Shown: positions 35,195-57,202, numbered from the stretch's first letter. The stretch: 64,000 nt of DNA from Pseudobdellovibrionaceae bacterium (GCA_039810425.1 JBDHWW010000013.1:11250-75249), one strand, 5' to 3'. A program made the numbers and translations. Notes: generated from the sequence alone by a model not told the origin.

Positions 35195-35243
35195 GCACTA
35201 GGGATTGGGGGATTTCATGATCTAGCTCACTAGATACGGATTT
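35195..35243. promoter_or_regulatory. Putative tandem NrdR boxes
   Basis: CACTAGGGATTGGG (35196) and CACTAGATACGGAT (35228), 32 bp apart, upstream of nrdGD. Confidence 0.4.
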
Positions 35244-38732: not shown

Positions 38733-40016
38733 ATGGAAAAACAATACTTGTCAGGCTTTGGAAATCACTTTTCGTCAGAGGCACGCGCAAATGCATTGCC
38801 ACTGAATCAAAACTCTCCGCAGGTTGTGCAGCAGGGACTTTATGCCGAACAACTGAGTGGCACGGCGTTCACGGCGCCGCGTGCTCATAATTTGGCAAGC
38901 TGGCTTTATCGTATTCGTCCTTCTGTTATGCATAAACCCTTTGTGCCGATGAAAGAGCTCACTGAAAAGACTCTTTTCAAGCCGAAACACATTAATCCAA
39001 ATCAAATGCGCTGGAATCCACTTCCACTCCCTGCGGCTTCACAGGATTTCGTTGAAAGCTTGCGCACGGTTTGCGGTATCGGTTCTGCCATAGAGCAAAG
39101 GGGGTTGCATATTCACCTCTACGCCTTCAACAAAGTCATGGGCTCCCGTTACTTCATGGATGCGGACGGCGACATGATGTTTGTGCTGCAGTCAGGCTCT
39201 ATTCAGGTGAAAACTGAAATGGGGACCATTGATGCAGAGCCTGGTGAAATCGTTGTGGTTCCACGCGGTATGAGGTTTCAAGTAAATCCATTGTCCGCCG
39301 TTTGCCGCGGTTATGTTGGTGAAAACTTCGGTGCACCTTTCCGCTTGCCGGAATTGGGCCCCATTGGCGCAAATGGTCTTGCACATCCTCGGCACTTTGA
39401 AACTCCCCAAGCCGCCTTTGAGGATATCGAAGGCAAGATGGAGATTGTCGGTAAATTCTCTGATCGGCTGTGGAGCGCGGAGATGAACCATTCGCCCCTG
39501 GATGTTGTTGCTTGGCACGGGAACTATGTGCCATTCAAGTACGATCTTCGTAAATTCAATACCATCAACACGGTGAGCTTTGACCATCCGGATCCTTCGA
39601 TCTTTACCGTACTGACTTCACCAAGTGATACGCAGGGAACGGCGAATGTGGACTTTGCGATCTTCCCGCCACGTTGGATGGTGGGTGAGCACACGTTCCG
39701 TCCACCATACTTCCACCGCAATTGCATGAGCGAATACATGGGCTTGATCTATGGTGTGTACGACGCAAAAACCAGCGGGGGTTTCGTTCCTGGTGGCGGC
39801 AGTCTTCATAACTTCTATTCGGCCCATGGGCCTGATGCTGACACTTTTGAGAATGCCAGCAGTGCGGATTTAAAGCCGCACAAGCTTGAAAACACTTTGG
39901 CTTTCATGTTTGAAAGTCGTGCGCCTTACCTGCTGACGGAATTTGCAATGCAGAAAGATTTCCTCCAAGAGGACTATCAAGACTGCTGGCAAGGCTTTAA
40001 AAAGAACTTCAAGTAA
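38733..40016 (+). CDS. hmgA: Homogentisate 1,2-dioxygenase
   Basis: YLSGFGNHFSSEA, LYAEQLSGTAFT, DHPDPSIFTVLT, RPPYFHRNCMSE, HGPD. Confidence 0.96.
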   Translation: MEKQYLSGFGNHFSSEARANALPLNQNSPQVVQQGLYAEQLSGTAFTAPRAHNLASWLYRIRPSVMHKPFVPMKELTEKTLFKPKHINPNQMRWNPLPLPAASQDFVESLRTVCGIGSAIEQRGLHIHLYAFNKVMGSRYFMDADGDMMFVLQSGSIQVKTEMGTIDAEPGEIVVVPRGMRFQVNPLSAVCRGYVGENFGAPFRLPELGPIGANGLAHPRHFETPQAAFEDIEGKMEIVGKFSDRLWSAEMNHSPLDVVAWHGNYVPFKYDLRKFNTINTVSFDHPDPSIFTVLTSPSDTQGTANVDFAIFPPRWMVGEHTFRPPYFHRNCMSEYMGLIYGVYDAKTSGGFVPGGGSLHNFYSAHGPDADTFENASSADLKPHKLENTLAFMFESRAPYLLTEFAMQKDFLQEDYQDCWQGFKKNFK

Positions 40017-40696
40017 TGTTAGCTTTCGAAACCGGCGACTCGCAGCAAAAGTATCTTTTGCAGGTTCATCAGTTCGTTACGGACTTTAAAGAGCCTGCAC
40101 CGTCTTTTCTGAACCTAGAAGAGATCGCTTATCTCGGCGCACTCACTAATGAAAAACGCAAAAACGAATATCTGCAGACACGTTTTGTACTGAAGAATCT
40201 TTTGGCGAAGTACATGGGGTTAGCTCCCAACGTCATTCAATTCAAAAAGGTCGGTGAGGGCAAGCCGGTTTTGATGAACCCCACTGTGCACCTCGATTTT
40301 AACTTATCCCACAGCGCCGACTACTTCGCGCTTGCGCTGTCAGAGAAGGGCGAAGTTGGTGTTGATATTGAAAAGATCCGTCAGCCTCAACATTTGACTC
40401 AGATCGCAGAGAAGTTCTTTTCAGCTTCAGAAACAGATTTGATTAAGCAGGAACCCGATCCCGCAAAGCAGACGGAGATCTTCGCCAAGTTCTGGTCCGG
40501 CAAAGAGGCCCTTGTGAAGGCTGTTGGCGGCGGTGTCTTTAAGAATGTTCACGAAGTTTTGGTCGATGAGACCCATTGGAAAATAAAAAGGCTTCCGTTG
40601 GAATTCGGAAGCCTTTCTGATTGGGATCTACAGTTTTTTGAAACCGTTCCCGGTTACACTTGCAGTGTTGCTTATAAAACTAGTGTAAGTTCTTAA
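40016..40696 (+). CDS. Sfp-type 4'-phosphopantetheinyl transferase
   Basis: GKP, FNLSHS, VGVDIE, WSGKEALVKAVG; TAATG overlap with hmgA. Confidence 0.9.
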   Translation: MLAFETGDSQQKYLLQVHQFVTDFKEPAPSFLNLEEIAYLGALTNEKRKNEYLQTRFVLKNLLAKYMGLAPNVIQFKKVGEGKPVLMNPTVHLDFNLSHSADYFALALSEKGEVGVDIEKIRQPQHLTQIAEKFFSASETDLIKQEPDPAKQTEIFAKFWSGKEALVKAVGGGVFKNVHEVLVDETHWKIKRLPLEFGSLSDWDLQFFETVPGYTCSVAYKTSVSS

Positions 40697-41819
40697 ACTT
40701 ATCGGTTACTTTTTTACTGATCGTCATAATCTTTTCACCTTCTTCCGCGTGCGAGCAACCAACGTGTGAAGGTGCTGCGCCAGAAAGAAGAACGCCACCC
40801 TGAGACTCGTTAGTGTAAGGGAAACGATCTGTCAAAGCCGCAATAGTTACTTTACGTTTTTCTATGCTTGCTTTCAAGTCTGCAATTGCAGCTCTTTCTG
40901 CAACTGCAGAAGACGGCAAGTAATTCAGCAATTGGCTTGCAACATCGCTTATGTCTTCATACAGTTTAAGAGCTTTTTTTGCACTTTCGTAAATATACCA
41001 GTTTCCTTCTTCTGTCGGAACGTACTTCAGAACACCATTTGAAGAGGCATCTTTCAAGATTGCTTCGATAGTGATTTCTTCAAGGAAGTAGTGCAAAAGC
41101 AAGGTGTCTTGAGCTTTTGCGAATCTTGCGAATGGCAAAGCGCTCTTTTGGCTTTTTTTGTTATCATCCAAAGACTCATCAGAAAAGATATTTTCAATGA
41201 TCGCTTTAGTAATAGAGTATTCTGCTCTAATACCCTCATCGTCATAACCTGTTTCATCTGCGCGAAGCATGAACAAGTGATGCATGAACTCATGCACAAG
41301 AGTCCATCTGTTTGTGTTTTCGCGAACGATGATAGCCGCGCCCTTATGAAGCGAAGGGAAAAGAGAAGAATCTTTCTTAGGTAAATAGAGACCCAAGATT
41401 ACCTGACCTTTTGGCAAATCTTTGTTTGAAGACTTCCATTTGTCAGAAATATCTGAAGGCATTGTTTGCGCGCCAGTGTAGAGGCTTGAAGAGCAGAGGT
41501 TTGTTGGAATCAATTCAGACTTATAGACAGTCGCGCCCGTCAAGTTAACGAAACGAAGAGTTTCATCAACACTGGATGTATATACAGCTGCCAAGTAGTT
41601 CAAGTTGAACTCTTTTTCGAAGTAAGTCCGAGCTGTTTTAGACGTACCTAAAGCACTATAATCAGCAGTCCCACCTTCCGTTAAAGTGAACTGACAGCTG
41701 AAAGTGTTCATCTCTTTTGGTGCCGTTAAATTTTTGCCGTCATCAGAGCCGCTAGAACAAGCGGCGACAGAACCCAAAACAAATCCTGTTACCAGAAATT
41801 TTCCCATAACCCCAGACAT
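40680..41819 (-). CDS. Hypothetical lipoprotein with HExxH metallopeptidase motif
   Basis: Lipobox VAAC; TLVHEFMHH with downstream LEE. Confidence 0.6.
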   Translation of the reverse strand: MSGVMGKFLVTGFVLGSVAACSSGSDDGKNLTAPKEMNTFSCQFTLTEGGTADYSALGTSKTARTYFEKEFNLNYLAAVYTSSVDETLRFVNLTGATVYKSELIPTNLCSSSLYTGAQTMPSDISDKWKSSNKDLPKGQVILGLYLPKKDSSLFPSLHKGAAIIVRENTNRWTLVHEFMHHLFMLRADETGYDDEGIRAEYSITKAIIENIFSDESLDDNKKSQKSALPFARFAKAQDTLLLHYFLEEITIEAILKDASSNGVLKYVPTEEGNWYIYESAKKALKLYEDISDVASQLLNYLPSSAVAERAAIADLKASIEKRKVTIAALTDRFPYTNESQGGVLLSGAAPSHVGCSHAEEGEKIMTISKKVTDKFKNLH

Positions 41820-41957: not shown

Positions 41958-43214
41958 TTAGCGGTTCCACTTGAAGCCGATTTGGCCGCTGGCTCTCTCG
42001 AGGGCTGAGAGCTCCTGAGTGTTGTTTCCGAAGCTATAGTTTGCCTCGGCAAAGAAAGTCCAAGCATCACCCACAGCCGTGTCCCACGCCAGTTGGACGG
42101 AGGAGGACTGGTCGGTCAGGGACTGAATATAGCGAAGAAATACGTTGTTATTCTGAATAAGGAGATCGGGTATGCGCAACGAGGCATAGCCATAGTGCTG
42201 CCCTAAGAGCTCGCGACCGGAATTTAAGATGCGTTCTAAATTTTCATTGCCACGCGGGTGTTGCGGGACTGCCGACTGGAAAGCGGCAAGCATATCTTCT
42301 TGCAACAGGCCGCAAGAGTTGTAAACATACTCTAAGCGGAAGTCCATGCCTCCTTCCCAGCGAATTCCGCCGACGGCAAGAGTATTCCAAGTTTCATTGT
42401 TACGAACATAGACCATATCGTAGAGAAGACTAGGCGAGATGTCCGGCATGTACTGGGCAGAACCTTGGGTATGGCGGGCATCGAGGTAGATGCTGAATCC
42501 TGGAGTGAGCTCCGAGTTAAAATATTCGCCGGCAAATGGGATCGTGTCATCGATGGTACCACCCGCCATGCCAAGGTAGTTCAAAGCATTACGGCCCCGG
42601 TATTCAATCTTAACGACTCCCTTTGGCTTGAATTTCTGCTCGTAGGTCCAGAAGGACTGACCGTTATTCATGGGCTCCGCGATGGTAATCACGCTCCAGC
42701 GGCTATTGGGGCTCCAATTGGCACGCAGAAGAAAACGTCCGTCTTCACGGTAAGTATAGGAGCGCTGATCGCGGCGGAAATGAAAGAATGGATTTGTTGG
42801 GCTGATAAACTCTGCCGGCCCCCATTGGTAGTTTTGCAGGCCTGCTGCCAAAGTCAGGCGGCGATTCGGATCGCCTTCAAGGAAAGCCTCGGGAAGAGAG
42901 GCCTCACCCGTGAATGTAGTCTTCGTCTCCTCCGTATCCAGATAGCGATACTGATTCACCCAGCCCTGAAAGCGGGGACGAAAGACCCAATGCGTGCCAC
43001 TTTGCCAAGTGTACTTGGTATTGATTCGGAGGTCCGACTGAAAACGGGCTTCTGGATTATCAAGGCGTCGGCCCGTTGGATCGATCAGGCTTTCCTGGCC
43101 CCGCTCCGTGCCTTGAGCAGAGTTGTACCACTCGATATCCCAGCGAAAGCTCTGTGCGGCGGCTGGAAGAGTCGCGCACAAGAGCAGGGCTAGAATGACC
43201 AAATTTCTAAACAT
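41958..43214 (-). CDS. Putative outer-membrane beta-barrel protein
   Basis: Signal peptide; 'AAGLQNYQWGPAEFISPTNPF'; aromatic amphipathic strands; ends QIGFKWNR. Confidence 0.65.
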   Translation of the reverse strand: MFRNLVILALLLCATLPAAAQSFRWDIEWYNSAQGTERGQESLIDPTGRRLDNPEARFQSDLRINTKYTWQSGTHWVFRPRFQGWVNQYRYLDTEETKTTFTGEASLPEAFLEGDPNRRLTLAAGLQNYQWGPAEFISPTNPFFHFRRDQRSYTYREDGRFLLRANWSPNSRWSVITIAEPMNNGQSFWTYEQKFKPKGVVKIEYRGRNALNYLGMAGGTIDDTIPFAGEYFNSELTPGFSIYLDARHTQGSAQYMPDISPSLLYDMVYVRNNETWNTLAVGGIRWEGGMDFRLEYVYNSCGLLQEDMLAAFQSAVPQHPRGNENLERILNSGRELLGQHYGYASLRIPDLLIQNNNVFLRYIQSLTDQSSSVQLAWDTAVGDAWTFFAEANYSFGNNTQELSALERASGQIGFKWNR

Positions 43215-44523
43215 AAGTTAAGTTTTCAGCAGTGCTATTTTTAAGAGTTGAACGGCACACAATCCATGTAGTCACGGCCGCCAAAAGACTCAAGAAAATA
43301 AAGCTAAAAACATAAAGATTCGGACTTATAAGGATGCGGAACGGGACAGGTTCAACCAGAACACCGGCTTTGTAAACGATACCCACTCCATTGAGGATAA
43401 AGGTTCCTACAATAGCAATGAGACTTCCGATCACTCCGCCAATAAACGACAGGGTTACGGCTTCGCTCACAAAGATATACAAGATCTGTTTCGGCACAAA
43501 ACCGATACTGCGAAGAGTTCCGATTTCGCGCGTCCGTTCTTTCACAAGCTTCATCATGGTGTTGAAGATGGAAAGACCCGCGATTGCTACGATGATTGAA
43601 ACCACGAAGTTTCTGAAAACTCCGAGGAGGCTCATCGTGCGCACGTACATTTCACCGATGATGTGGTTTTCCCAGCGAGACATGCGCTGCTGGAGACCGG
43701 CTTTCTCGGCTTCAGCGTTGAACTCTTTGATGATGCCGTCGATGTAGCTGCCTTTATCGAGGAACTTCACCGTGATGTAGCTGATATTTTTCGTGTTCAT
43801 CAGCGTCTGAGCATCCTCAAGAGAGGTCGCGAGGAACTTATCGTCGATATCCTTGTAGAGCGCATCCATCAAGCCCACGACTTGCAAATCCAAAGCGTTT
43901 AATTGACCTTCAGGTGTCGTGATGTTGAGCTGAATATCCGGAGAGCTGCAGTGGAAAGGGCGGACTTCTGGTTTATAACCTGCCACTGCGTTCATCATCT
44001 TTACTTTTTGATCAGGAACGCAGCCAAGAATTTTACCGAGGGACTGTCCGACTAAAACCGTGTGCTGTTCTTTGAGGGGGCTTCCGTAAAGAGCATTCCA
44101 GGCCCAGTCGGGGGCGCGGGTTTTTTCACCCTCAGCAAGGTCGTAGCCATAGCCACGGAAGATCGTCGACGTCTTACCGTTCGTCACCATTCCGTTAATG
44201 GAAAGGAAACGGTTGTAAGCATCGATTTTGTTTTTATATTGATCGAAGAACTTATGTACGAACTCTTGTTCAGAAGGAGTGACTTCATACTTCCAAGGTT
44301 CTGCGCGGCCTTCGGCATGGCGGAGGTTGAGGTTCTCGACAACCACATCTCCCCACATCATGCGAGAGCGGAAGGACTCCTGATAGATTCTTTCAACGTC
44401 CTTCATGTATCCCTGGAACATCACCAGAGAAATCAAGCCCGCGGCAAGACTGATCGTTGCCGCCAAGCTTTGGCGCCAGTGCAAGAACACATTTCTAAGG
44501 GCAATTTTTAACAGACTATTCAT
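43207..44523 (-). CDS. ABC transporter permease (FtsX/LolE-like)
   Basis: IALRNV, large periplasmic loop, ERTREIGTLRSIGF. Confidence 0.9.
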   Translation of the reverse strand: MNSLLKIALRNVFLHWRQSLAATISLAAGLISLVMFQGYMKDVERIYQESFRSRMMWGDVVVENLNLRHAEGRAEPWKYEVTPSEQEFVHKFFDQYKNKIDAYNRFLSINGMVTNGKTSTIFRGYGYDLAEGEKTRAPDWAWNALYGSPLKEQHTVLVGQSLGKILGCVPDQKVKMMNAVAGYKPEVRPFHCSSPDIQLNITTPEGQLNALDLQVVGLMDALYKDIDDKFLATSLEDAQTLMNTKNISYITVKFLDKGSYIDGIIKEFNAEAEKAGLQQRMSRWENHIIGEMYVRTMSLLGVFRNFVVSIIVAIAGLSIFNTMMKLVKERTREIGTLRSIGFVPKQILYIFVSEAVTLSFIGGVIGSLIAIVGTFILNGVGIVYKAGVLVEPVPFRILISPNLYVFSFIFLSLLAAVTTWIVCRSTLKNSTAENLTYV

Positions 44524-45257
44524 CGGCTCAAGTTATTCACGTTAAAAAGAGAAGCCGGAAGGGATTCCGCCTTTGGTTTAGTGTATTCAATGATACTGCG
44601 GTTCTTAGGAAACTTAGAATCAGTGATTGTCATTTTGCTGATGAAAGCAAAGGTCTTACCTTCCGCCGTCATTTTATTATCATACTCAAAATTCGCCCCT
44701 TTGAACGGCGTCCCTTGAAGAGTCATGAACTCCGCCTTCAAGGCCAATTTTGACTTCTTAGAGATCCAGTACTTGATCTGATCGTAAGTAACTTGGTTCG
44801 ACTTCGCTTTGAGCATCAAGACTGTCGCGTCTTCACCATTTACTTTATCACTGCCGGCATCCTTGGCGTCGTAGTCACGGGCATAGTTTGTTGAAGCGAT
44901 GTCACCATTTGCCGCTTGGCCGGAAAGCTTTTGGCGGGCCGAGATTGAAACCGGTTTACGCAGGCTTGGTTTAAAGAACCACATATTGCGGTCATTGAAC
45001 AAGAAGACTTCGCCTTTGTTACGGGCGGGAGTCAGCGCTTCGACATTGGCGTCATTGCCTTTTGCTTTAATCGTAAATGTTCTTTCGCTCTGGTCACCGT
45101 CTTCTTCAGTGATGATTTTTGCATCCCAAACAACGCCGTCTTTCAGGCCGCCGCGTGCACGGTCGCTGACTTTTAATAGCTCCGCCGCACTTTCAGCCGC
45201 TGCGGAGTGAAGCGAGTAAACTGACATGATGGCACAAAGAATAACTAACTTTTTCAT
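44520..45257 (-). CDS. Outer membrane lipoprotein-sorting (LolA-like) periplasmic protein
   Basis: Signal peptide; 'MWFFKPSLRKPVSISARQKLSGQAANGDIA', 'TYDQIKYWI'. Confidence 0.8.
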   Translation of the reverse strand: MKKLVILCAIMSVYSLHSAAAESAAELLKVSDRARGGLKDGVVWDAKIITEEDGDQSERTFTIKAKGNDANVEALTPARNKGEVFLFNDRNMWFFKPSLRKPVSISARQKLSGQAANGDIASTNYARDYDAKDAGSDKVNGEDATVLMLKAKSNQVTYDQIKYWISKKSKLALKAEFMTLQGTPFKGANFEYDNKMTAEGKTFAFISKMTITDSKFPKNRSIIEYTKPKAESLPASLFNVNNLSR

Positions 45258-45268
45258 AAACACACCCA

Positions 45269-46570
45269 CTAGTTTGCCTGTTGTAAAAGGTGAATAATTG
45301 GCTTGTTAACAAGTTTCTTGGAAACAACGTATGCACAAATAAGACAAATAATCATAATCGGAATCGCCAAGATGATGCAGAACCAAGTGTCTGGATTCAT
45401 CATGAACTGCATATCGCCCGCAATCCCCGGGGGATCAAAGCGGATGTTTAACGAATTCATAAGGAAGGCAATGACTTGAGCTAGAATGTAACCGCAAACT
45501 AAGCTGATCGCCGTTAAGAAAAGACTCTCAAGCGTGAATAGCCACGCGGTCTGCGCGTTCGTAAAACCAATGGCGCGTAAAGTTCCGATTTCGCGGACGC
45601 GCTCAAGGATTCCGATGGTCATAGAGTTCACAATCGACAAGGCCACAGCACTAAAGATCAAGAAGATGAAGAAGCCCGCCATGATGTACAAGAACCCAAC
45701 AGTGCCCACGTAGAAAAGGCCAATCGAGTCGTCATTAAAAGGAATCGTCTGGAAGTCGAGGCCCGCAGCATCGATCTTTGCCTGGAGTTTCTTTTGAATG
45801 CTACTAACGCTGGCGTCAGGATTCAAATAGATCGCGAGATAAGTCGCGCCGTCTGTTGCATAGAGGTTTTGTAAAACACTCAGCGGAGCAATGAGGCTCG
45901 TATCTTCGGCCATCATCATACCTGTCGTATGTTTAAAACCTAAGTTCGCGTTCACCGCATTCAGATCGCCATCAAAAGTGCGGCCTGCAAGCTGAACATC
46001 TCTTTCAGCAACTGACAAATCCGTGAACGGGGCCTTACGACCGATCAAAGTGCCTAGCTGCTTTGTCACAGAGACTGTTTCAGCAAGCGCTCCTTCAGCG
46101 TCCTTGATCGAAGGCTCTTTTGCAGAAGGCACCAGTTCAGGAGTCCAACGACTTACTTGCGGATGAGATTGAATACGTTTTTCGTCAGAAGGGGTAATAC
46201 CGTAAGCAACGAAAGGAACGGATTTGTTTCCGTTACTGAGAAGTCCCATGCCTTGCAGAACAGGAACCGTGAATTCAACCGCAGGTTCTTGTGCTGTGAT
46301 CTCGCGGATTTTCTGCATATCGTCCGCGCTGAGGTGAAACTTACGAGGATTATTGTAGAAGCCGTCCACGCCGCCTTTTTTGTAAATGGCGATATGGCCC
46401 GTGTGATTCACGTACACGGAGCTCGTGCGCATGAAGTGCTCTACGTAGATAATGTAACCGCCTAAGAGGCAAAGGCCTGTAAAGCCCGCGATGATCGCAA
46501 TCCCGGTTGAAAAGCTACGACGCTTGTTCTTCCAGAGGTTGCGAAGGGCCATTTTGCTAAACAACGTCAT
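45269..46570 (-). CDS. ABC transporter permease (FtsX/LolC-like)
   Basis: MALRNLWKNKRRS, ERVREIGTLRAIGF. Confidence 0.9.
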   Translation of the reverse strand: MTLFSKMALRNLWKNKRRSFSTGIAIIAGFTGLCLLGGYIIYVEHFMRTSSVYVNHTGHIAIYKKGGVDGFYNNPRKFHLSADDMQKIREITAQEPAVEFTVPVLQGMGLLSNGNKSVPFVAYGITPSDEKRIQSHPQVSRWTPELVPSAKEPSIKDAEGALAETVSVTKQLGTLIGRKAPFTDLSVAERDVQLAGRTFDGDLNAVNANLGFKHTTGMMMAEDTSLIAPLSVLQNLYATDGATYLAIYLNPDASVSSIQKKLQAKIDAAGLDFQTIPFNDDSIGLFYVGTVGFLYIMAGFFIFLIFSAVALSIVNSMTIGILERVREIGTLRAIGFTNAQTAWLFTLESLFLTAISLVCGYILAQVIAFLMNSLNIRFDPPGIAGDMQFMMNPDTWFCIILAIPIMIICLICAYVVSKKLVNKPIIHLLQQAN

Positions 46571-47250
46571 TCTGTGATCACTCCGTCTTGGATGCGGATG
46601 ATACGGCCGACGCGATCAATGAGCTTTTCATCATGTGAACAGAACAAGAACGTGATTTGCTTCTTTTGATTGAGTTCCAAAAGAAGGTCGATGATCTTAT
46701 GGCTTGTTTTAGAATCTAAGTTCGCTGTTGGCTCATCGGCAAGAACAAGTGTCGGATGAGTCACAAGGGCGCGAGCAATCGCCACACGCTGGCGCTGACC
46801 GCCTGAGAGCTTGTCCGGCGGGTAGTGAGCAAACTGCTCAAGCTCAACGTCTTTCAACGCCGCCATTACGCGGTTCTTTCTTTCTTCAGCGCTGACTTCA
46901 GGTTGGATTACGAGTGGCAACTCGATGTTTTCATAAACATTGAGAACCGGGATCAGATTGAATGATTGAAAGATAAAACCGATTTTATGATTTCTGAGAG
47001 AGCTTTTTTGAACTTCGTCTAAGTGAGTGATGTCTTGGCCGTCGAAAACGATTTGTCCGTTATCAGGTGAATCGATGCAACCGACGAGGTTGAGAAGAGT
47101 ACTTTTGCCTGAACCTGATTTTCCGATGAGAGCTGTGAACTCTCCTTTTTTAATTGAGAGATTCAGACCGCGCAATGCTGGCACGGTCGTCTCGCCCAGG
47201 TGATAAGTCTTAACAACGTTCTTTAAGGCGAGAATTTCATTTGATTGCAT
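46567..47250 (-). CDS. ABC transporter ATP-binding protein (LolD/MacB-like)
   Basis: GKSGSGKST, LSGGQRQRVAIARAL, LADEPTANLD. Confidence 0.95.
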   Translation of the reverse strand: MQSNEILALKNVVKTYHLGETTVPALRGLNLSIKKGEFTALIGKSGSGKSTLLNLVGCIDSPDNGQIVFDGQDITHLDEVQKSSLRNHKIGFIFQSFNLIPVLNVYENIELPLVIQPEVSAEERKNRVMAALKDVELEQFAHYPPDKLSGGQRQRVAIARALVTHPTLVLADEPTANLDSKTSHKIIDLLLELNQKKQITFLFCSHDEKLIDRVGRIIRIQDGVITE

Positions 47251-47258
47251 TGGGGTCC

Positions 47259-47486
47259 CTAAGTTTTGCTATTCATGACCGAGATCAGATCCCCCACTGT
47301 TTTCACCGGGATCAAATCCTCTTGGTTTAATCTAATATTAAAAGTGTTCTGGAGATCGATGACCATGTCAATGAGGATAAAGGAGTCGATAACCAGTTCT
47401 TGAAGGACTGCGTTGTCAGTAATCTTCTCTGAAGGAACACTCAAAATCTGGCTAATGCGAGTTTTAATCTTATTATTATCTAACAT
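47259..47486 (-). CDS. Acyl carrier protein
   Basis: 75 aa; LVIDSF phosphopantetheine Ser; KTVGDL. Confidence 0.85.
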   Translation of the reverse strand: MLDNNKIKTRISQILSVPSEKITDNAVLQELVIDSFILIDMVIDLQNTFNIRLNQEDLIPVKTVGDLISVMNSKT

Positions 47487-47495
47487 GGTTCTACC

Positions 47496-48068
47496 TTAGT
47501 CCTTCTTAAATTTTAAAATACCAGCGATGCGCTCTTCATGCTCTTTAACTGTCTTCTGATAGACTTCTTTGTCCGCATCGTAGAAGCGTTTGAGCGTCTT
47601 ATCGATGTGTTCTTTGCCGTATTCGCCCTCCATGTTTTTCAGAGCTTGTGTCACCCATTCGATGTGCCACTTTTCATCTTCAACAATGAGGTCGAGTGTC
47701 TTTTTAATCTCAGGATTTAAGTCCTGAGCCTGACGATGTAGAGCATACTGTCCAATCACGCGTTTTTCAAAGATCAACGTGATGCCCAAAACTTCCATGA
47801 TATTCGCCGGCATTCCCGCAGCAGAAATATACTGGTCCTGATAAGCGGTATCGAGTTTGATGGGTTCGTGTCCAAGAGTTTGTAAGCAACGAGTCCAGAA
47901 CCAAGAGTGCTGAGATTCATCGGCAAAATGTTTTGTGAGATCCGTTTGAATCGGACCTGGCGGCAATGATTTTGCGAGACGGCCGAAAAAGAGAGCGCCC
48001 GAGATTTCACTCGTGCGATAAAAGCTCAGAAGCCATCTTTCATTCTCTGTTAAAGGCTGGATTTTCAT
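47496..48068 (-). CDS. Ferritin-like diiron protein
   Basis: E (TSEIS), DESQH, E (FEKR), DEKWH four-helix ligand pattern. Confidence 0.8.
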   Translation of the reverse strand: MKIQPLTENERWLLSFYRTSEISGALFFGRLAKSLPPGPIQTDLTKHFADESQHSWFWTRCLQTLGHEPIKLDTAYQDQYISAAGMPANIMEVLGITLIFEKRVIGQYALHRQAQDLNPEIKKTLDLIVEDEKWHIEWVTQALKNMEGEYGKEHIDKTLKRFYDADKEVYQKTVKEHEERIAGILKFKKD

Positions 48069-49159
48069 TAGGCGCCTCCTTTAGTGAATTTTGTTTGAGC
48101 AAGGTGCTGGCAGGTTTTTCGAACGATATCTTCCATGGCTGCCGTCTTGTAACCAGGGAGCAAAGACTGAAGAGCTTCGTTAGAAACTTCTTTCTTCACG
48201 AAGAGCTGACGGCCAAACGGAGAAATACTCGCAAGGCCCTGATTCAGAACGCTGCCGCCGAAACCTTTCATATTTGTCACGAGCGTATCAAAAGATTTCT
48301 CGTCAGCAAAAAGAGGCTTTAGCAAACGTCTTGATTTAAACATTTCGTCTTTGTTGAATTCTTCAAAAGCAATATCAATAAATCGACCGAGTGGAATACT
48401 CGCGGCTTGGTCGTAACAGACGTGATAGATTTTCTGACTCTGACCTTTGTTCACGACTGCGGCTAAAGACTTCGCAGTGAATTCGCCGTCCACAAGGTGA
48501 ATCGGTGTTTCAGCACGGCCCGGAAGCAAAGAAATCAAACCATAGTAGAAAAGCTTAAGAGTGTTATGAATGGCGTTGTGCTGAATCACGGTGCCGCTAT
48601 CGCCATCCGCGATGATTGTAGCAACGCGAGCGATTCTCCACGGGAGGTTCGAGAATTGAGTGCGAATGGCTTCTTCGACTTCCCATTTTGAGCGTTCGTA
48701 GTGATTTGCAAAAACAGGAGAGCTAAAGAATTCTTCCTTGATCGGGCCCGCTGCCATACCTGAAGCATAAAGAGTGCTCACGTAAGTGAAGTTTTCCAGC
48801 TTCGGCAACTCAGATACAAATTTTAATAGTGCCAAAGAGCCATCGCGGTTCACAGAGTTCGCAGTGACTTCATCAACGTTAAACGCGGTTTTTGCGGCGT
48901 TGTGGATAATGATGTTGATATCGTTACGTTGAGCTTGCAGGTTCTCAACGAGATTTGCCAAATCACTCTGGACTATTTCAACGCGAGCGTGCTTAGCCGC
49001 AGGCACATCTTTCAAAAGATCTGCTTTGCGCTTTTCTAGCTCTTCTGCGGAACCTGCACGCACAGGAACTAATAGAGTCTCCGAGCGTTCTGTCAGAAGT
49101 TGCTCGAGGAGTTTTTTGCCGATGTAGCCGGTGGCACCGGTCAGAAGAATCTTAGCCAT
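48068..49159 (-). CDS. Thioester/fatty-acyl reductase-like extended SDR
   Basis: TGATGYIG, HNAA, YVST, NHYERSKWEVE. Confidence 0.82.
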   Translation of the reverse strand: MAKILLTGATGYIGKKLLEQLLTERSETLLVPVRAGSAEELEKRKADLLKDVPAAKHARVEIVQSDLANLVENLQAQRNDINIIIHNAAKTAFNVDEVTANSVNRDGSLALLKFVSELPKLENFTYVSTLYASGMAAGPIKEEFFSSPVFANHYERSKWEVEEAIRTQFSNLPWRIARVATIIADGDSGTVIQHNAIHNTLKLFYYGLISLLPGRAETPIHLVDGEFTAKSLAAVVNKGQSQKIYHVCYDQAASIPLGRFIDIAFEEFNKDEMFKSRRLLKPLFADEKSFDTLVTNMKGFGGSVLNQGLASISPFGRQLFVKKEVSNEALQSLLPGYKTAAMEDIVRKTCQHLAQTKFTKGGA

Positions 49160-50024
49160 TTTGGATCTCCTTCATCGGCCAGTGAGCAGGATTTGTCCCG
49201 TAACGGCTGATAATAGCAAAGAGCCATCTTTCTAAACCGAAAGCGATGCAAGCGCTGGTCGCTGTTTCGCCTTGGTATTTGATGTTAAAACTTTCGCCAA
49301 AGTAGTCTTTGTGGAAATTGGTCGAACCAATCGAGAGGTCTTTGTTAAAGATCATCTCGTGTTTTACAGGGTCTAATTGCTGCATGATGAACTTCGGATT
49401 GCTCTCTGGATTAAAGAATGGATCCGTTGCTACTTCCCATGAAATGCCGAGATCGAGCTTCGCAAGCTTTTCAGTCACGATATCGCGGTACTTCTTTACG
49501 AAGCTGCGAACGTGATCTTGGGGGCCGATGCAAACGATCTCACGCATATTGAAAGACCACTGACGTTGCAAAGGTTTGTAGTAAAGTTCACGACGGAAGC
49601 AATTCGCACGTGTTGTCAGGTGCAAAGGCTCTTGCAGATCCTGATCTTGGAAGTGGATATAGAAATGATAACAAGCGGCCGGTGTTAAACAGTCGCAGAC
49701 CTTGTCGATTTCAGTAAGATGGACTTTGCCATCGCTAAAACGTGGGCCTTCAGTGAACTTTTCCAGGTTCTTGGCGTCGTTTTGATCCAAAGCCACCGGG
49801 AAAGTAATTAAATGAGGGAATGATTTAAAATAATCAAGCTTGTTGAGTTCCGCCGCTTGAATGAAAGGCGGGAAATAAAATTCACGAGCCTGGGCCGTCG
49901 CTGCGATTCTTAAAAACATCGCATCAAGAGCTTTAAAGAGCTCAAAAATAGATCCGCTCAGATTTGATTGTCCGTTTGGAATCCATTTATAGCCAGGAAT
50001 CTCGGTGAATTTGATTTCACTCAT
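49152..50024 (-). CDS. Amino acid:[carrier protein] ligase (SerRS catalytic-domain homolog)
   Basis: YFKSFPH, LTPAACYHFY, CFRRE, FNMREIVCIG, ATDPFF, SACIAFGLERW; no tRNA-binding domain. Confidence 0.85.
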   Translation of the reverse strand: MSEIKFTEIPGYKWIPNGQSNLSGSIFELFKALDAMFLRIAATAQAREFYFPPFIQAAELNKLDYFKSFPHLITFPVALDQNDAKNLEKFTEGPRFSDGKVHLTEIDKVCDCLTPAACYHFYIHFQDQDLQEPLHLTTRANCFRRELYYKPLQRQWSFNMREIVCIGPQDHVRSFVKKYRDIVTEKLAKLDLGISWEVATDPFFNPESNPKFIMQQLDPVKHEMIFNKDLSIGSTNFHKDYFGESFNIKYQGETATSACIAFGLERWLFAIISRYGTNPAHWPMKEIQNG

Positions 50025-50275
50025 GTCGCACTCCCAAAGAAGGAAGCATAAATGCTGTCAATCGTGTTGAAAGCACCTGGCTTGATGGCTTTGAGGTTAA
50101 ATTTGGAACCTTTGATTTTCTCAACTTCCAAAATCAACTCCATCACGTGGAGTGAGCTTAAAATGCGGGTTTCCAAAAGGTGTGTATCAAAGGCAAGCTC
50201 TGCCCCAGTCACTTTCTTAGACTTTTTCAAAACCCATTGGCGGAGTGTTTCTTTGACTTCTTGTTCTGTTTTCAT
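50021..50275 (-). CDS. Carrier protein (ACP/PCP-like)
   Basis: 84 aa; DTHLLETRILSSLHVMELI; FNTIDSI; ATGA overlaps on both sides. Confidence 0.75.
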   Translation of the reverse strand: MKTEQEVKETLRQWVLKKSKKVTGAELAFDTHLLETRILSSLHVMELILEVEKIKGSKFNLKAIKPGAFNTIDSIYASFFGSAT

Positions 50276-51135
50276 AACTCGAAAATCTCCTCGATAATGC
50301 CACATTTTTTCAGATAATTTAAACTTACACGAGATGCGCGGACGCGGTGTTCGCGGGCTTTGTCGCTTTCAAACACGCGAGAAGCCAAGTCGTAAGCGTC
50401 TTCAATGCCGGCATCTACGTAGATGTCTGGATTGTAGTATTCACGCCAAGTTGTTACATAGTAACCACGAATGTAGTCGCGAATCCCTTGCAGAGTTTCC
50501 GCCGACCACTGTGGAGAGAATGTTTTAAATAGATCGTTCAAAATCACACGGCCAAACGCCAAGTGACGAACTTCATCTTCGTGGTGATTCGCATTGATAT
50601 CGCGAGAAAGCTGCATCACGCGCTCATCTCGAGCTGTCGTTACGTTGTAATAGTCGACGATCTCTTCGAAAACGAAGACTTTAATAAAAAATAAAAACTC
50701 TTCTTCGCCGGTTGCATATTCACGCGGGAAAACGATTTTGCGATCAGGATAGATCTTGCCTGCGTACTTTTCACAGAAAGTACCGAAGAAGTACATGTGT
50801 TTGTTTTCTTCATCGATAAAGTGATGGATATAGTCCGTCACATCTTGGTTTTCACTCTCGTACAAACGGCGAGTAAGTCCCTCAAGCAAGGACTTTTCAC
50901 CATGAACATTCAGACTAAAGAAATTCACTTCTTCAAAGAAGCTGAGTTTTTTCTTTTGCTCTTCATTGAGAGCTTCCCATTCAGGGGAACCATAGATAGA
51001 GATGAGCTCGGGGCTTACAAACCAGTTATTCTTCTCAAGCTGCTCAGGGAATTGAATATGAGTAAACGGATTGTAGAATCCTTTAATCGATTGAGCAGTC
51101 AGTTTTTTAGCAACTTGTGAGATATCGTGGCTCAT
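50272..51135 (-). CDS. AurF/CmlI-family diiron oxygenase
   Basis: PELISIYG, GE, DEENKH, FEE, HHEDEVRH. Confidence 0.85.
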   Translation of the reverse strand: MSHDISQVAKKLTAQSIKGFYNPFTHIQFPEQLEKNNWFVSPELISIYGSPEWEALNEEQKKKLSFFEEVNFFSLNVHGEKSLLEGLTRRLYESENQDVTDYIHHFIDEENKHMYFFGTFCEKYAGKIYPDRKIVFPREYATGEEEFLFFIKVFVFEEIVDYYNVTTARDERVMQLSRDINANHHEDEVRHLAFGRVILNDLFKTFSPQWSAETLQGIRDYIRGYYVTTWREYYNPDIYVDAGIEDAYDLASRVFESDKAREHRVRASRVSLNYLKKCGIIEEIFEL

Positions 51136-51136
51136 A

Positions 51137-52087
51137 CTACACCTTCTCTAAGATGACGGCCTGCCAGTTCAAACCAAAGCCTGCCATGAAAAGCAGTAAC
51201 TTCTGGCCTGGTTTTACAAGCTTGTCTTCTTCGATTTTAACCAAGTTCACAATATTATCAGAACTGATGATGTGGCCGACTTCCTGAATAGATTTGAAGT
51301 AAACTTTTTCAAACTCAGTTCCCAAAAGGCGGGATAAAATCACCCATGCATTCACATTGGTGTTCTGAGGGATAATCCAGTCGATATCTTCGATTTTAAG
51401 ACCGGACTTATCAAAAAGCTCCGTGAGGAGTCTATGAGTATAACTGAAATAGCTGCCGACAGTTTCGTCGTCATTCGCTTGCGCCATAGCGCCGTTCGTC
51501 AACGCATGTGTTGCAATCAAGCGATAACCTTTTTCTTCGTCGCTCACCACACAAGCAGCAGCGCCGTCAGAAATTACATTATAAGCCTGTTCGTAAGAAG
51601 CGCCTTCTGGAAAGCGATCTGCTGTTACGCAGAGGATTTTCTTTTGCTCTGGCTCTGACAAGATCAAAGCACGGGCAAGGCGCAAAGATCCAAGCATGCT
51701 CGTGCAAGCCTGCTGGTTCAGTCCAAGTACGGCCGCACTTTCAAGACCAAAATCGGCTTGTAAGTGGCTCGCTGGATAGTCCATGAGGTATTTCACATCA
51801 CGGCTTTCTTTAAATTTATTAAAAGATCCGATATTGCCATTCAAAGGAAGGCATGTCGCATAGACAATCGAGTTCACGTTTGTCAGCGCGTTCTTAATCT
51901 GAGAAACTGCGCCCACAGCCAAGTCATAGGCATTTTGCGAAGGTGAACTCATGCGGTGAAACGCAAAGCCCGCCTCAACAAATTGCTGGTAGTCAGTGAG
52001 AAGACGGCCGGCCTTAGACGATTCTTCAATCGACACTCTCTGGTCACCCAGGAAATAAGCCAAATCGTGAACGAAAACGGATTTCAT
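51137..52087 (-). CDS. KAS III-like acyltransferase (CerJ/ChlB6-type motifs)
   Basis: QQACTS Cys, SDGAAA, IIPQNTN, GHIISSD, AGFGLNW. Confidence 0.8.
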   Translation of the reverse strand: MKSVFVHDLAYFLGDQRVSIEESSKAGRLLTDYQQFVEAGFAFHRMSSPSQNAYDLAVGAVSQIKNALTNVNSIVYATCLPLNGNIGSFNKFKESRDVKYLMDYPASHLQADFGLESAAVLGLNQQACTSMLGSLRLARALILSEPEQKKILCVTADRFPEGASYEQAYNVISDGAAACVVSDEEKGYRLIATHALTNGAMAQANDDETVGSYFSYTHRLLTELFDKSGLKIEDIDWIIPQNTNVNAWVILSRLLGTEFEKVYFKSIQEVGHIISSDNIVNLVKIEEDKLVKPGQKLLLFMAGFGLNWQAVILEKV

Positions 52088-52089
52088 TA

Positions 52090-52653
52090 TTAAGCTCCGA
52101 GTTTAGGGAAGAAGCGACCAGTCGTTTTCATATAGTTTTGGTATTCGGAACCGAATGCTGAGTTCGACAAGTTGTTTTCTTCGCGGGCCGCCGTGCGGTT
52201 CAAGATCACGATACACCAAACCATACCCAAGAATGTAATCAAGTGAGGCATCATGATGATTGAAGCCAACTGAGCCGTGATGAAAGAGCTATAGAATGGG
52301 TGACGGATGTATTTGTAAGCACCCCAAGTTACGATGTTTGCTGGTGCATCGTTGTTTTGGTGCCAAAGAGCGAGTGGGATACGGTGAGTACCCATCGTGT
52401 ATGAGATCATGCCGATAGAGAAAGAGCTCAAGATGACGACGGCGATTTCGCCAGCCAACGGAATTGACCAGTACAACTCGAGGCTGATGACGCCGAACTG
52501 TTGCAAGAAGATGAGGACTGCATTCAAGAACAAAGGACCCGCTGTCATCCACCACATCAAATTATAGCGGCCGTCTTTTTTAAAGAAAATGCGTGGAAGA
52601 ATGCCGATATAAGCGAAATTTACGAGGAGTAAAGTGACGAGAGTCCTGTTCAT
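52090..52653 (-). CDS. ICMT/PEMT-family membrane methyltransferase
   Basis: TM helices; GAYKYIRHPFYSS, REE, YQNYMKTTGRFFP. Confidence 0.85.
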   Translation of the reverse strand: MNRTLVTLLLVNFAYIGILPRIFFKKDGRYNLMWWMTAGPLFLNAVLIFLQQFGVISLELYWSIPLAGEIAVVILSSFSIGMISYTMGTHRIPLALWHQNNDAPANIVTWGAYKYIRHPFYSSFITAQLASIIMMPHLITFLGMVWCIVILNRTAAREENNLSNSAFGSEYQNYMKTTGRFFPKLGA

Positions 52654-54302
52654 ACGGTGATCCTTTGTTTTAATAAGAGTTCTTTAACTAAATTCTTTTT
52701 AACTTTTAATGTTGTTGTTTTAGGAAGCGGTTCGGTGAGGAAGATGAATTTCGAAGGACGCTTATAATAACTTAGTTGCATAGTCGCTTGGTGCAGTGAT
52801 TTTTGAATTTGTTCTTGAAGTATAGCATCCGCAGGATTGACGACAACAACTGCTGTCACGATTTCTGTTCCTTTTGTAGCGCCTTGGCTTGATTTCATCC
52901 CGAGGACACAAATTTCCTGGACGTTCGGGATTTCACGCAAGCTTTCTTCAACTTCTTCTGGAGCAACTTTTTTACCACTGCCAAGGACGATCAAGTCCTT
53001 GTTGCGGCCCTTGATAGTAATAAAACCATCAGAGTCGATTTCACCAACATCACCAGTATTAAACCAGCCATCGGCTGAAAGGCAGGCTGCTGTTGCCTCA
53101 GGATTTTTAAAATATCCTTGCATAACGATCGGACCGCGAACCAAAATCTCTTGGGTTTCAGAGTGAAGCTTCACTTCAATTCCATCAAGAGCTTTACCGA
53201 TGCTGCCGGGTTTGTTTATCCCTGGAGAGCTGCACGAAATAACTGGAGCAGTTTCGGTCATTCCGTAGCCTTCAAAGACAGAAACGCCGATGAGTTCAAA
53301 GAATTTTCCTACTTTTAAATCGAGCGCTGAAGCGCCGGAGATGATTTGATGAAGGTCACCACCAAACTTCTTATGAAGAGGATAAAATAAAAGGCGACGA
53401 ATAGATTTGCTCGGAATAAAGCGCGCTAAACGCACGGTCGAATAGAACCAAATGCGTTTTAAAGCGGAAGTGCGAATCTCGCTTTCTATGCCCTTTTTCA
53501 AAGTACGCAAGAACAGCGGTACAACCAGCAAATCGCGGATTTTATTTTCTTTAAAGAATGAAATAATTTGGTGTGGAATCAAAGAGTTTGCGTAATAAAC
53601 GCTGCCGCCACGGCTAAATGGTAATAAGAAGCCGCCGGTAATTTCAAACATATGGTGCAAAGGCAAAATAGACAGCAAGCGGAAGTCTTTCTTCGTGCTG
53701 AAGAGTTCGCCGGCAAGGTCGACTTGAAAATGGACACTTCTGAAAGTTAACATTACAGCTTTAGGCTGGCTTGTTGTGCCAGAAGTAAAAGCCATCAGGA
53801 AGGTCTCATCAGTAGGGCGTGTAAGGGAAGCGAGGTCCGCTGTCACAGCAAAATCCTCGGTCATGACGTCGTTGATACTGAGCAAGCGAAGTTCTTGCGC
53901 GGAGTTTTGCACAAGTTTTTCCCCAATAGCACGAGTCTCATCATTCATGCAGAGTACGAATTTAGCTTCAGAAAATTCAGAGATAAATTTTTGATCAGCA
54001 AGGCTTAAGCGAATATCGACTGGCACGATGATGCCGCCAGCGAGTGGAATCCCAAAGAAACCGACAGAGTATTCAGGGCGAGATTTTGCCAGGATAAGAA
54101 CGCGGTCACCTTTTTGAAGGCCCAAAGAACTCAGCTTTTGTGCGAGTTTCTCGGCATGATGGCAAACATCACTGTAAGTCAGTGGAATCCATGTATGGTT
54201 TTCGGCAGTGCCTTGACGGCCGAAGAATGCCGGACGGGAAGCGTATCGTTCTGAGACGCTTTTTAAGAAGCTATAAATGTCTGTTTGCTCCGGCTTTGCC
54301 AT
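52650..54302 (-). CDS. Long-chain acyl-CoA/ACP ligase (AMP-binding)
   Basis: FTSGTTSQPK, EGYGMTET, WFNTGD, GRNKDLIV, LPKTTTLKVKK. Confidence 0.9.
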   Translation of the reverse strand: MAKPEQTDIYSFLKSVSERYASRPAFFGRQGTAENHTWIPLTYSDVCHHAEKLAQKLSSLGLQKGDRVLILAKSRPEYSVGFFGIPLAGGIIVPVDIRLSLADQKFISEFSEAKFVLCMNDETRAIGEKLVQNSAQELRLLSINDVMTEDFAVTADLASLTRPTDETFLMAFTSGTTSQPKAVMLTFRSVHFQVDLAGELFSTKKDFRLLSILPLHHMFEITGGFLLPFSRGGSVYYANSLIPHQIISFFKENKIRDLLVVPLFLRTLKKGIESEIRTSALKRIWFYSTVRLARFIPSKSIRRLLFYPLHKKFGGDLHQIISGASALDLKVGKFFELIGVSVFEGYGMTETAPVISCSSPGINKPGSIGKALDGIEVKLHSETQEILVRGPIVMQGYFKNPEATAACLSADGWFNTGDVGEIDSDGFITIKGRNKDLIVLGSGKKVAPEEVEESLREIPNVQEICVLGMKSSQGATKGTEIVTAVVVVNPADAILQEQIQKSLHQATMQLSYYKRPSKFIFLTEPLPKTTTLKVKKNLVKELLLKQRITV

Positions 54303-57129: not shown

Positions 57130-57202
57130 AGGATCCTCCGGGCGAATGCCCACAGAATGATCCTGTTCATCATAGTTTGGCAATCACTTGCGGCGAAGGT
57201 TC

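Follow-up and report, generated by a model that had tools for sequence, protein, structure and literature searches.

Organization of the locus

The 64,000-nucleotide stretch of DNA analyzed here (the window) comes from a Pseudobdellovibrionaceae bacterium (GCA_039810425.1 JBDHWW010000013.1:11250-75249), a Bdellovibrio-like, non-pathogenic environmental predator of bacteria, and carries 14 consecutive open reading frames (ORFs) on the minus strand, running from position 54302 down to 41958 (g01-g14, Table 1). The set separates into two parts, a nine-gene enzyme cassette (g01-g09) and a Lol-like exporter (g10-g14). The cassette recurs across bacteria and is a candidate pathway for an exported lipid built on a modified amino acid. 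The 14 genes are closely packed, with overlaps at eight junctions (4, 4, 8, 1, 4, 1, 4 and 8 bp) and gaps at four (2, 1, 9 and 8 bp). The remaining junction is g04/g05, where the overlap measures 34 bp with the longest ORF of g05 but shrinks to 4 bp when the Met of MKTE is taken as the g05 start. This arrangement agrees with an initial annotation of the window, which had described 14 tightly packed genes on one strand. Of the gene labels proposed there, 12 are supported by the Pfam and NCBIfam searches. The other two are weaker: neither g05 nor g14 has a Pfam match, and their labels come from a conserved Ser motif and from a signal peptide together with look-alikes, respectively. An Sfp-type phosphopantetheinyl transferase (PPTase) is encoded in the window in the convergent direction and is the probable activator of the two carrier proteins, g05 and g09.

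Table 1. Genes of the cassette, the exporter and the adjoining region, in window coordinates. ACP, acyl carrier protein; ADO, aldehyde-deformylating oxygenase; ICMT, isoprenylcysteine carboxyl methyltransferase; KAS III, ketoacyl-ACP synthase III; SerRS, seryl-tRNA synthetase.
Gene	Assigned product	Length (aa)	Position	Strand	Basis
g01	AMP-dependent acyl ligase	550	52650..54302	-	PF00501 2.6e-61
g02	ICMT-family integral-membrane methyltransferase	187	52090..52653	-	PF04140 1.1e-06
g03	KAS III-like protein	316	51137..52087	-	PF08541, PF08545
g04	AurF/CmlI-like diiron oxygenase	287	50272..51135	-	PF11583 8.9e-30
g05	small carrier protein	94 (longest ORF)	50021..50305	-	conserved Ser motif, without Pfam match
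g06	amino acid:[carrier protein] ligase, SerRS-like	290	49152..50024	-	NF005479, PDB 3mey
g07	stand-alone thioester reductase	363	48068..49159	-	PF07993 1.9e-32
g08	small ferritin-like diiron protein, ADO-like fold	190	47496..48068	-	PF02915 1.1e-05
g09	acyl carrier protein	75	47259..47486	-	PF00550 1.2e-08
g10	LolD/MacB-type ABC ATPase		46567..47250	-	PF00005 2.7e-37
g11	FtsX-type permease 1		45269..46570	-	PF02687 4.9e-20
g12	LolA-like periplasmic protein		44520..45269	-	PF17131 2.4e-32
g13	FtsX-type permease 2		43207..44523	-	PF02687 4.9e-17
g14	secreted protein, probable outer-membrane barrel	418	41958..43214	-	signal peptide
g15	lipoprotein, HEFMH motif	379	40680..41819	-	Lipobox-like N-terminus and HExxH in sequence
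PPTase	Sfp-type phosphopantetheinyl transferase		40016..40696	+ (convergent)	PF01648 2.3e-20

Conservation of the cassette across bacteria

A scan of species-representative genomes yielded 256 confirmed relatives of g04, from which the best 80 loci were kept, and the presence of each gene was scored by tblastn of the window proteins against these 80 loci. Forty-two of them extend at least 4.5 kb upstream and at least 5 kb downstream and were treated as full loci; the other 38 are too short on one side. The genes g03, g07, g08 and g09 are present in all 42 full loci, g05 in 41, g01 and g06 in 38 each and g02 in 34. The complete set of nine is found in 27 of the full loci, and 34 keep the genes collinear on a single strand. 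Conservation within the cassette is highest for g08, and g05, where present, always lies between g04 and g06 (41 of 42 full loci). The record titles of the cassette loci carry at least 12 phylum-level labels, including Bdellovibrionota, Acidobacteriota, Actinomycetota, Cyanobacteriota with Melainabacteria, Nitrospirota, Omnitrophota, Planctomycetota, Chloroflexota, Bacillota, Eisenbacteria, Myxococcota and Alpha-, Beta- and Gammaproteobacteria. Repetition of the g01-g09 order in dozens of unrelated genomes is far beyond chance, and the nine-gene cassette is probably horizontally mobile. A PPTase gene usually accompanies the cassette: a homolog directly follows the ACP gene in two loci (L001 and L002), and a PPTase gene lies between the thioester reductase gene (g07) and g08 in many other phyla. 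Three loci (L055, L074 and L080) show g04 alone.

The exporter and its association with the cassette

The exporter resembles the Lol system at the family level. The g10 ATPase scores 242 bits against the LolD model TIGR02211 (cutoff 307.75), and g11 and g13 score 30-54 bits against the lolCE model (cutoff 362), the match of g11 being weak and that of g13 having an E value of 1.1e-14. All stay below the NCBIfam equivalog cutoffs for Lol proteins, and g12 falls within the broader LolA_like family PF17131. Language-model look-alikes of g14 in the Atlas are named 'alginate export' outer-membrane proteins, which provides a lead only. Seven of the 80 loci, each bearing the label Bdellovibrionota, have homologs of g11-g14, with the full module directly after the ACP gene in five, and a homolog of g14 follows the second FtsX-type permease gene in L006, L008, L012, L020 and L023. 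In other phyla, different transporter genes accompany the cassette: MMPL genes lie near it in L017 and L076, and the cyanobacterial locus L043 has an HlyD gene near the cassette and an ABC ATPase match ~2.5 kb further on.

These observations bear on whether the two parts belong together. It is possible, though we hold it doubtful, that they are two independent systems that happen to adjoin, g10-g14 being a general Lol/MacB-like envelope exporter of the lineage with no relation to what the cassette makes. Among 41 genomes of the order to which the window belongs (G000 included), homologs of g14 occur in 12, whereas g08 is found in three, all of one genus. In the related genome G001, a complete export module (68-91% identity) occupies a site syntenic with the window flanks (papain-like protease, MFS and HgmA genes on one side, NDH2 and aminoacyl-tRNA synthetase genes on the other), whereas the cassette and its PPTase lie ~480 kb away. 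In G002, a sister species, HgmA is followed by the PPTase, the export module and then a remnant of the g09 ACP gene; the module and the PPTase are intact, and the cassette is reduced to this remnant of 27 residues (L086, 14218-14298), which is flanked by stops, includes the DSF serine motif and lies directly upstream of the module. A scan for promoters and terminators in the window stayed at chance level (16 found where 17.1 were expected, and 25 where 17.4 were expected); it therefore sets no operon limits and gives no signal above chance between the two parts, whether dividing or linking them.

However, the module follows the ACP gene in the same order in six further loci (L006, L008, L012, L020, L023 and L077) of distant Bdellovibrionota lineages, whose cassette genes are 37-73% identical to those of the window, and the gap between g09 and g10 in the window is only 8 bp. 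Lipid exporters unrelated to g10-g14 are found near the cassette in other phyla, once fused to its methyltransferase. The ACP remnant in G002 indicates that the cassette was once present there and has since been deleted. The adjacency of cassette and exporter is thus ancestral in this genus, with the exporter persisting after the cassette is lost. As a partner the exporter is specific to the lineage, and it also exists without the cassette. The initial annotation had taken the 14 genes as one system; that picture gives way to a probably mobile nine-gene cassette, with its PPTase, beside a lineage-specific exporter that is also found alone.

Carrier loading and oxidation

The g06 protein matches Bll0957 (PDB 3mey), a ligase of the amino acid:[carrier protein] type (aa:CP ligase), with an E value of 2e-30 over residues 43-285 of 290. 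It consists of a class II aminoacyl-tRNA synthetase (aaRS) catalytic core (PF00587, tRNA-synt_2b) without a tRNA-binding domain, and the blocks PAAC, FRRE, MRE..CIG and C.AFG..R are identical to those of Bll0957 in the alignment. The PAAC, MRE and C.AFG blocks presumably hold the zinc-binding Cys, Glu and Cys of the methanogen-type SerRS site. The match to NF005479 (9.9e-41, 139.7 bits) lies below the equivalog cutoff of 357, making g06 a relative and not a called equivalog. A dedicated carrier, g05, is encoded beside it, as expected of an aa:CP ligase. The carrier is probably 84 aa long, starting from Met11 at position 50275, the Met that aligns with the starts of its homologs. Its motif RI(I/L)SSLQVM(D/E)L is conserved, and the second Ser, which is almost invariant, aligns with the DS serine of g09. 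The homolog at the same position in Streptomyces gives a weak PP-binding match.

The g04 protein belongs to the AurF family, scoring 104.2 bits against PF11583 (cutoff 29.6). Searched by sequence against the PDB, it had no match at E<=1. Its AlphaFold2 model (predicted local distance difference test score, pLDDT, 90.2) is closest to CmlI (5hyh, TM 0.67) and AurF (2jcd, TM 0.66) in Foldseek, with R2-like ligand-binding oxidases and the R2 subunit of ribonucleotide reductase (RNR) ranking behind. The family alignment shows invariant E80, E110, H113, E157/E158, H184/H185, E188 and H191. The pattern H184-x3-E188-x2-H191 together with E80, E110-x2-H113 and E158 would fit the three-His, four-carboxylate spacing of AurF. 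The family comprises 1183 proteins at E<=0.001 among 2101 candidates, and identity across phyla is 50-57%.

Homologs of g04 were also found in 16 plasmid records, and four of these loci were examined. In three of the four, on plasmids of Agrobacterium vitis, Tistrella mobilis and a Streptomyces sp. (L082, L083 and L085), a g04 homolog (35-37% identical) lies within two genes of a g06 homolog (30-39% identical) and a small carrier-like ORF. Each of the three also has a gene for an NMO-family flavoenzyme, and the fifth gene encodes an O-methyltransferase in Tistrella, an FlK-like thioesterase in Agrobacterium vitis and an alpha/beta hydrolase in Streptomyces. This smaller gene set might process a nitro-acyl thioester. 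In the fourth locus, from Nostoc, the oxygenase adjoins a nonribosomal peptide synthetase (NRPS)-like protein with adenylation, thiolation and thioesterase domains (A-T-TE). A Corallococcus protein of 982 aa (P0124) is a fusion of a thioester reductase (TR) domain, an alpha/beta hydrolase and an AurF-like domain, the last sharing 37% identity with g04 across 82% of its length. Recurrence of the oxygenase, carrier and aa:CP ligase trio in remote clusters suggests that the oxygenase acts on a tethered amino acid, as in the ham and pvf pathways discussed below. The Corallococcus fusion would place reductase and oxygenase in one pathway. Together, the fusion and the remote contexts tie the oxygenase both to carrier-bound amino acids and to a reductase.

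Acylation, release and tailoring

The best NCBIfam match of g01 is a long-chain-fatty-acid-CoA ligase model, under its cutoff, and the best PDB match is FadD13 (2.5e-44). From these similarities, g01 likely activates a fatty acid, either to coenzyme A or to the ACP g09, which matches several NCBIfam ACP models. In two loci (L010 and L061) the g01 homolog is fused to MFS and PlsC-type acyltransferase domains.

Alignment of g03 with FabH (2ebd) and CerJ (3s3l) showed that the His of the FabH motif PHQAN is replaced by Gln, and that the segment GHIISSD lines up with GHVGAGD of CerJ. The Cys of FabH is retained as C128. No variation is seen at C128, Q241, N242, H272 or D277 among 27 sequences drawn from many phyla. 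The Cys-His-Asn triad of FabH is thus lost, with Gln241 at the His position and His272 at the Asn position, whereas the CerJ/DpsC pattern is retained as a C128 nucleophile with H272-x4-D277. The His and Asp residues of this His-x4-Asp pattern have a catalytic role in CerJ and DpsC. The residue set indicates that g03 is likely an acyltransferase rather than a decarboxylating condensing enzyme.

The g07 protein matches TIGR01746 (1.1e-26) with 93.9 bits (cutoff 213), and its nearest PDB matches are an NRPS reductase (R) domain (6vtj), a polyketide synthase (PKS) TR domain (8v1x) and MxaA. Among 19 sequences, G11, Y154 and K158 never vary and T7 and G8 hardly do, giving the N-terminal glycine-rich nucleotide motif and the Y-x3-K motif. 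Beta-lactone or olefin chemistry of the OleABCD kind, considered in view of the KAS III, short-chain dehydrogenase/reductase (SDR) and AMP ligase proteins, is unsupported: the best matches of g07 are thioester reductases, its match to the 2-alkyl-3-oxoalkanoate reductase model is only weak, and g03 does not have the thiolase His/Asn pair.

The two-His, four-carboxylate set of g08 (E21, E51xxH54, E101 and E132xxH135) is invariant in 31 sequences. Its AlphaFold2 model (pLDDT 90.4) is structurally closest to 5ux2_B (Z 18.6, 2.7 A, 179 of 190 residues aligned), and two further matches also have aldehyde-deformylating activity (5uwz, Z 17.1; 8fhc, Z 16.8). The other matches include 3ez0 (Z 18.4) and the PaaA-like 4mud (Z 17.3). 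The deformylating and PaaA-like matches span Z 16.3-18.6, compared with a ferritin/Dps background of about Z 14. At the sequence level, Pfam and PDB searches gave no match of g08 to ADO. A search for longer forms of g08 returned one protein of 418 aa, without Pfam domains.

The g02 methyltransferase scores 29.4 bits against PF04140 (cutoff 24) and matches NF040696 at 2.1e-15, under the cutoff; its homolog is absent from the Actinomycetota loci. In the gammaproteobacterial locus L058 (3826-6888), a Pfam scan showed an ICMT-like methyltransferase fused at the N-terminus of an MMPL/RND-type transporter of 1020 aa in total, and family assignment placed ORFs of three further gammaproteobacterial cassettes (L063, L067 and L072) in the same family as this fusion.

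Several assignments made initially are borne out by these comparisons: the atypical KAS III proves CerJ-like by alignment and invariant residues, the SerRS-like ligase is a true homolog of Bll0957, and the SDR-class thioester reductase lies nearest to the terminal R domains of NRPSs and PKSs. The label of g08 as a ferritin-like diiron protein likewise stands, with the addition that it is structurally closest to aldehyde-deformylating oxygenases, a route that had not been considered.

Comparison with known systems

The aa:CP ligases have been known structurally and biochemically since 2010. With Bll0957 and Atu2573, g06 shares the catalytic core, the motif blocks and an adjoining small carrier gene. 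However, these characterized ligases have no known pathway, whereas g06 stands in a fixed enzyme context. On these ligases, an earlier review covers Gly/Ala loading chemistry only (PMC5370406), and a 2022 review describes their biological role as still unknown (PMC9437257).

The closest logic among described pathways is that of ham, pvf and mgo, which lead to fragin, valdiazen, pyrazine N-oxides and leudiazen. In the ham pathway, as its description has it, valine is loaded on the adenylation-thiolation-reductase (A-T-R) NRPS HamD and oxidized on the carrier by the AurF homolog HamC, then released through the reductase domain as an aldehyde and later acylated by HamF to give fragin (PMC11659414). 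Judged by that description, g04-g05-g06-g07 follow the same logic in separate proteins (PMC11659414). An A-T-R NRPS is absent from the 14 genes by Pfam and NCBIfam, its functions being split over g06, g05 and g07. Loading is by NRPS adenylation in ham and pvf, whereas here a SerRS-like aa:CP ligase works with a free-standing carrier and reductase. Acylation is by a condensation domain in ham, whereas here the CerJ-like KAS III would acylate. Compared with ham and pvf, the cassette adds the ADO-like diiron protein, the ICMT-like methyltransferase and the lipid exporters. Pfam matches of the kinds expected for HamA (haem-oxygenase-like), HamB (cupin), HamE and HamG were not seen in the 14 genes, in which no specific search for them was made.

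The lipothrenin (lit) cluster of Streptomyces aureus encodes a FabH-like protein, a fatty acyl-AMP ligase, an ACP, the AurF-like LitN and the R2-like LitE, and its products are described as N-hydroxy-N-acyl-threonines (PMC10616846). On the basis of its gene table and description, it is, like the cassette, an NRPS/PKS-independent lipo-amino-acid pathway (PMC10616846). However, aa:CP ligase, thioester reductase and ICMT-type methyltransferase are all missing from that gene table; the lit product retains the carboxylate of the amino acid and is exported by an MFS pump, and LitB is thought to prime fatty-acid synthesis and not to transfer acyl groups (PMC10616846). As far as the gene descriptions in these two sources go, neither ham nor lit has an aa:CP ligase, a CerJ-like KAS III, an ADO-like protein or an ICMT-like enzyme.

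The cassette shares with the cyanobacterial acyl-ACP reductase (AAR)/ADO pair a thioester-to-aldehyde reductase gene beside a small ferritin-like diiron protein gene. However, g07 is an SDR-type TR and not an AAR, and alkane synthesis has nothing that corresponds to the other cassette genes. The exporter has the ABC ATPase, two FtsX-type permeases and LolA-like periplasmic protein of the LolCDE-LolA and MacB-type systems; unlike these, it has an extra, probable outer-membrane protein and lies inside a biosynthetic operon. Two further candidates were rejected. The nocuolin noc cluster, as its source describes it, has a fatty acyl-AMP ligase-ACP pair, the Claisen ketosynthase NocG and acyl-ACP dehydrogenases, a gene set unlike the cassette (PMC9486936), and the CylC halogenase clusters with NMO genes belong, by their published description, to a different family (PMC8406957). 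A literature search, with subscription journals and supplements outside its reach, found no paper with this gene combination. The claim of the initial annotation that no characterized pathway has it therefore holds within that search, qualified by the partial precedents that the descriptions of ham/pvf (PMC11659414) and lit (PMC10616846) provide.

Proposed pathway and alternatives

We favor, with modest confidence, the reading that the cassette makes an exported lipid in which a carrier-bound, diiron-oxidized small amino acid is joined to a fatty acyl group, with release by reduction and with methylation. The evidence leans to about the same degree towards a carrier-protein-based pathway independent of NRPS and PKS enzymes, known here from the genes alone. 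Within this scheme, oxidation of the amino acid at nitrogen is the likelier outcome. The pathway would begin with priming of both carriers by the Sfp-type PPTase. From its homology to Bll0957 and its conserved active-site blocks, g06 would then load a small amino acid of the Gly/Ala/Ser type on g05. The tethered amino acid would be oxidized by g04, most likely at N, as HamC and PvfB do on NRPS-tethered valine; the conserved gene trio, the fold and the ligand pattern are the reasons for this assignment. In parallel, g01 would activate a fatty acid to be carried by the ACP g09. As its residue set suggests, g03 would take the acyl group on Cys128 and pass it to the oxidized aminoacyl thioester without decarboxylation. 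The product may then be freed by g07 as an aldehyde or alcohol, and g08 may carry out a further oxidation or a deformylation. The membrane enzyme g02 would methylate an acidic group, and g10-g14, judged by adjacency, would move the lipid to the outer membrane or beyond. A lipid product is indicated by what accompanies the cassette: the ICMT-MMPL fusion, the MMPL genes, the HlyD/ABC genes, the ligase fused to MFS and PlsC-type domains, and the Lol-like module. The order of tethering, oxidation, acylation, release, methylation and export had been proposed in the initial annotation; it is consistent with the data and strengthened by the trio, the fusions and the exporters, while the order of steps and the product remain proposals.

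Several observations weigh against this scheme. Both the product of the cassette and the activities of its enzymes are predicted from genes alone. Over structural alignments, g04 is just 10-15% identical to AurF and CmlI, so oxidation of carbon or halogenation is also possible. The fold of g08, closest to aldehyde-deformylating oxygenases, may mean that a carbon is lost after reduction, which lies outside the simple scheme. Since reductive release would leave no carboxylate, the scheme does not explain the methyl acceptor of a canonical ICMT-type reaction. The g06 gene is absent from four full loci (L058, L063, L070 and L072); the scanned neighborhood of L058 contains a second AMP-binding enzyme, along with a membrane desaturase and a PF10118 protein, indicating that the loading chemistry is not universal. 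Finally, given the wider occurrence of g14 than of g08 in the order, the exporter is not obviously dedicated, and it lies far from the cassette in G001 and persists beside a decayed ACP remnant in G002.

In an alternative that we consider unlikely, carbon is the target of both diiron enzymes, which would hydroxylate, desaturate or halogenate the acyl or aminoacyl chain, and the product is an amino-alcohol or N-acyl amino-alcohol lipid that is not N-oxidized (ethanolamide-, serinol- or sphingoid-like). The resemblance of g04 to R2-like ligand-binding oxidases and RNR R2 would fit such a role, as would the position of the g08 gene next to the ACP gene g09 and the membrane-lipid-type exporters that accompany the cassette. 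CylC, a distant dimetal-carboxylate relative of the N-oxygenases, acts on acyl-ACPs according to its published description (PMC8406957). However, the top structural matches of g04 are two N-oxygenases, and g04 retains the extra His of the H-x3-E-x2-H pattern. Its remote homologs moreover lie beside genes for an aa:CP ligase, a carrier and an NMO-family enzyme, or beside an NRPS-like adenylating protein, linking the family to amino-acid nitrogen chemistry and not to fatty chains.

That the product is no membrane lipid but a small molecule that diffuses as a signal or binds metal, like valdiazen, the pyrazine N-oxides or hydroxamates, with an acyl group that is short or a transient handle, appears quite improbable. 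In favor of this reading, the g04-g07 block mirrors PvfB/HamC plus an A-T-R NRPS, described as makers of diffusible signals (PMC11659414), the FabH-like, fatty acyl-AMP ligase, ACP, R2-like and AurF-like set of lit is described as leading to a hydroxamate siderophore (PMC10616846), and the patchy, mobile distribution is typical of accessory metabolites. Against it, the Lol-like, MMPL and HlyD/ABC exporters, the membrane methyltransferase and the Aas-like ligase fusion point to a long-chain amphiphile, and the nearest relatives of g01 are fatty acyl-CoA synthetases of the long-chain type.

Of the schemes compatible with all nine enzymes, the boldest, which we regard as a long shot, starts from a nitroacetyl-carrier 'extender unit' and ends in an exported lipid of the nitro or methyl-nitronate type. 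Here glycine on g05 would be oxidized fully to a nitroacetyl thioester of the carrier, and g03 would C-acylate the acidic nitronate carbon with a fatty acyl group, free of decarboxylation; such C-acylation would explain the loss of the FabH His/Asn pair. The reductase would give an aldehyde, whose carbon g08 would remove as formate, and the ICMT-like enzyme would O-methylate the carboxylate-like aci-nitro group. The remote variants with oxygenase, carrier, ligase and NMO-family enzyme, joined by an FlK-like thioesterase or an O-methyltransferase, would also handle nitroacetyl thioesters, possibly as a nitrite source.

Flanking genes and sequencing runs

The gene for g15, a predicted lipoprotein whose HEFMH motif is zinc-protease-like, lies between the exporter and the PPTase gene, separated from g14 by a gap of 138 bp. 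It has no Pfam match and no homolog in any of the 80 related loci, and is probably not part of the system. Upstream of g01 is a gene-poor stretch of 2 kb containing an ORF of 74 aa (54887-55111, minus strand) with a signal-peptide-like N-terminus and no Pfam match. The NDH-2 type NADH dehydrogenase gene adjoining the cluster (56075-57183, minus strand) is broken: the intact 466-aa homolog of G001 matches it over residues 35-249 and 320-465 in different frames, with ~70 residues missing. It may be a pseudogene or an assembly error. Further away, 30100-35198 encodes a tyrosine-decarboxylase-like pyridoxal-phosphate enzyme, a Crp-family regulator and the anaerobic ribonucleotide reductase NrdD with its activase, all ordinary genes. 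The G+C content of the cassette (0.44-0.47) is slightly lower than that of the flanks (0.48-0.51), a difference too weak to provide an argument for transfer.

In a run labelled as RNA (X17), contigs cover parts of g01, g02/g03, g07/g08, g10/g11 and g12/g13, a coverage that is not read as transcription. The contigs are 90-98% alike to the window, indicating that they come from a relative. Two small RNA runs of the probable source study gave no contigs for the locus, and run X20 is probably DNA.

Biological implications

The cassette puts an aa:CP ligase in a fixed, phylum-spanning enzyme context and provides a pathway that can be tested directly. It would represent a cryptic lipid pathway in lineages poor in classical natural-product genes, such as Nitrospirota, Omnitrophota, Melainabacteria, Acidimicrobiia and Bdellovibrionota. 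The new enzymology on offer would include a diiron oxygenase whose substrate sits on a carrier loaded by an aaRS-like enzyme, a KAS III that does not decarboxylate and an ADO-like protein paired with a thioester reductase. As an envelope lipid, a signal or a metal binder, the product could represent a new class.

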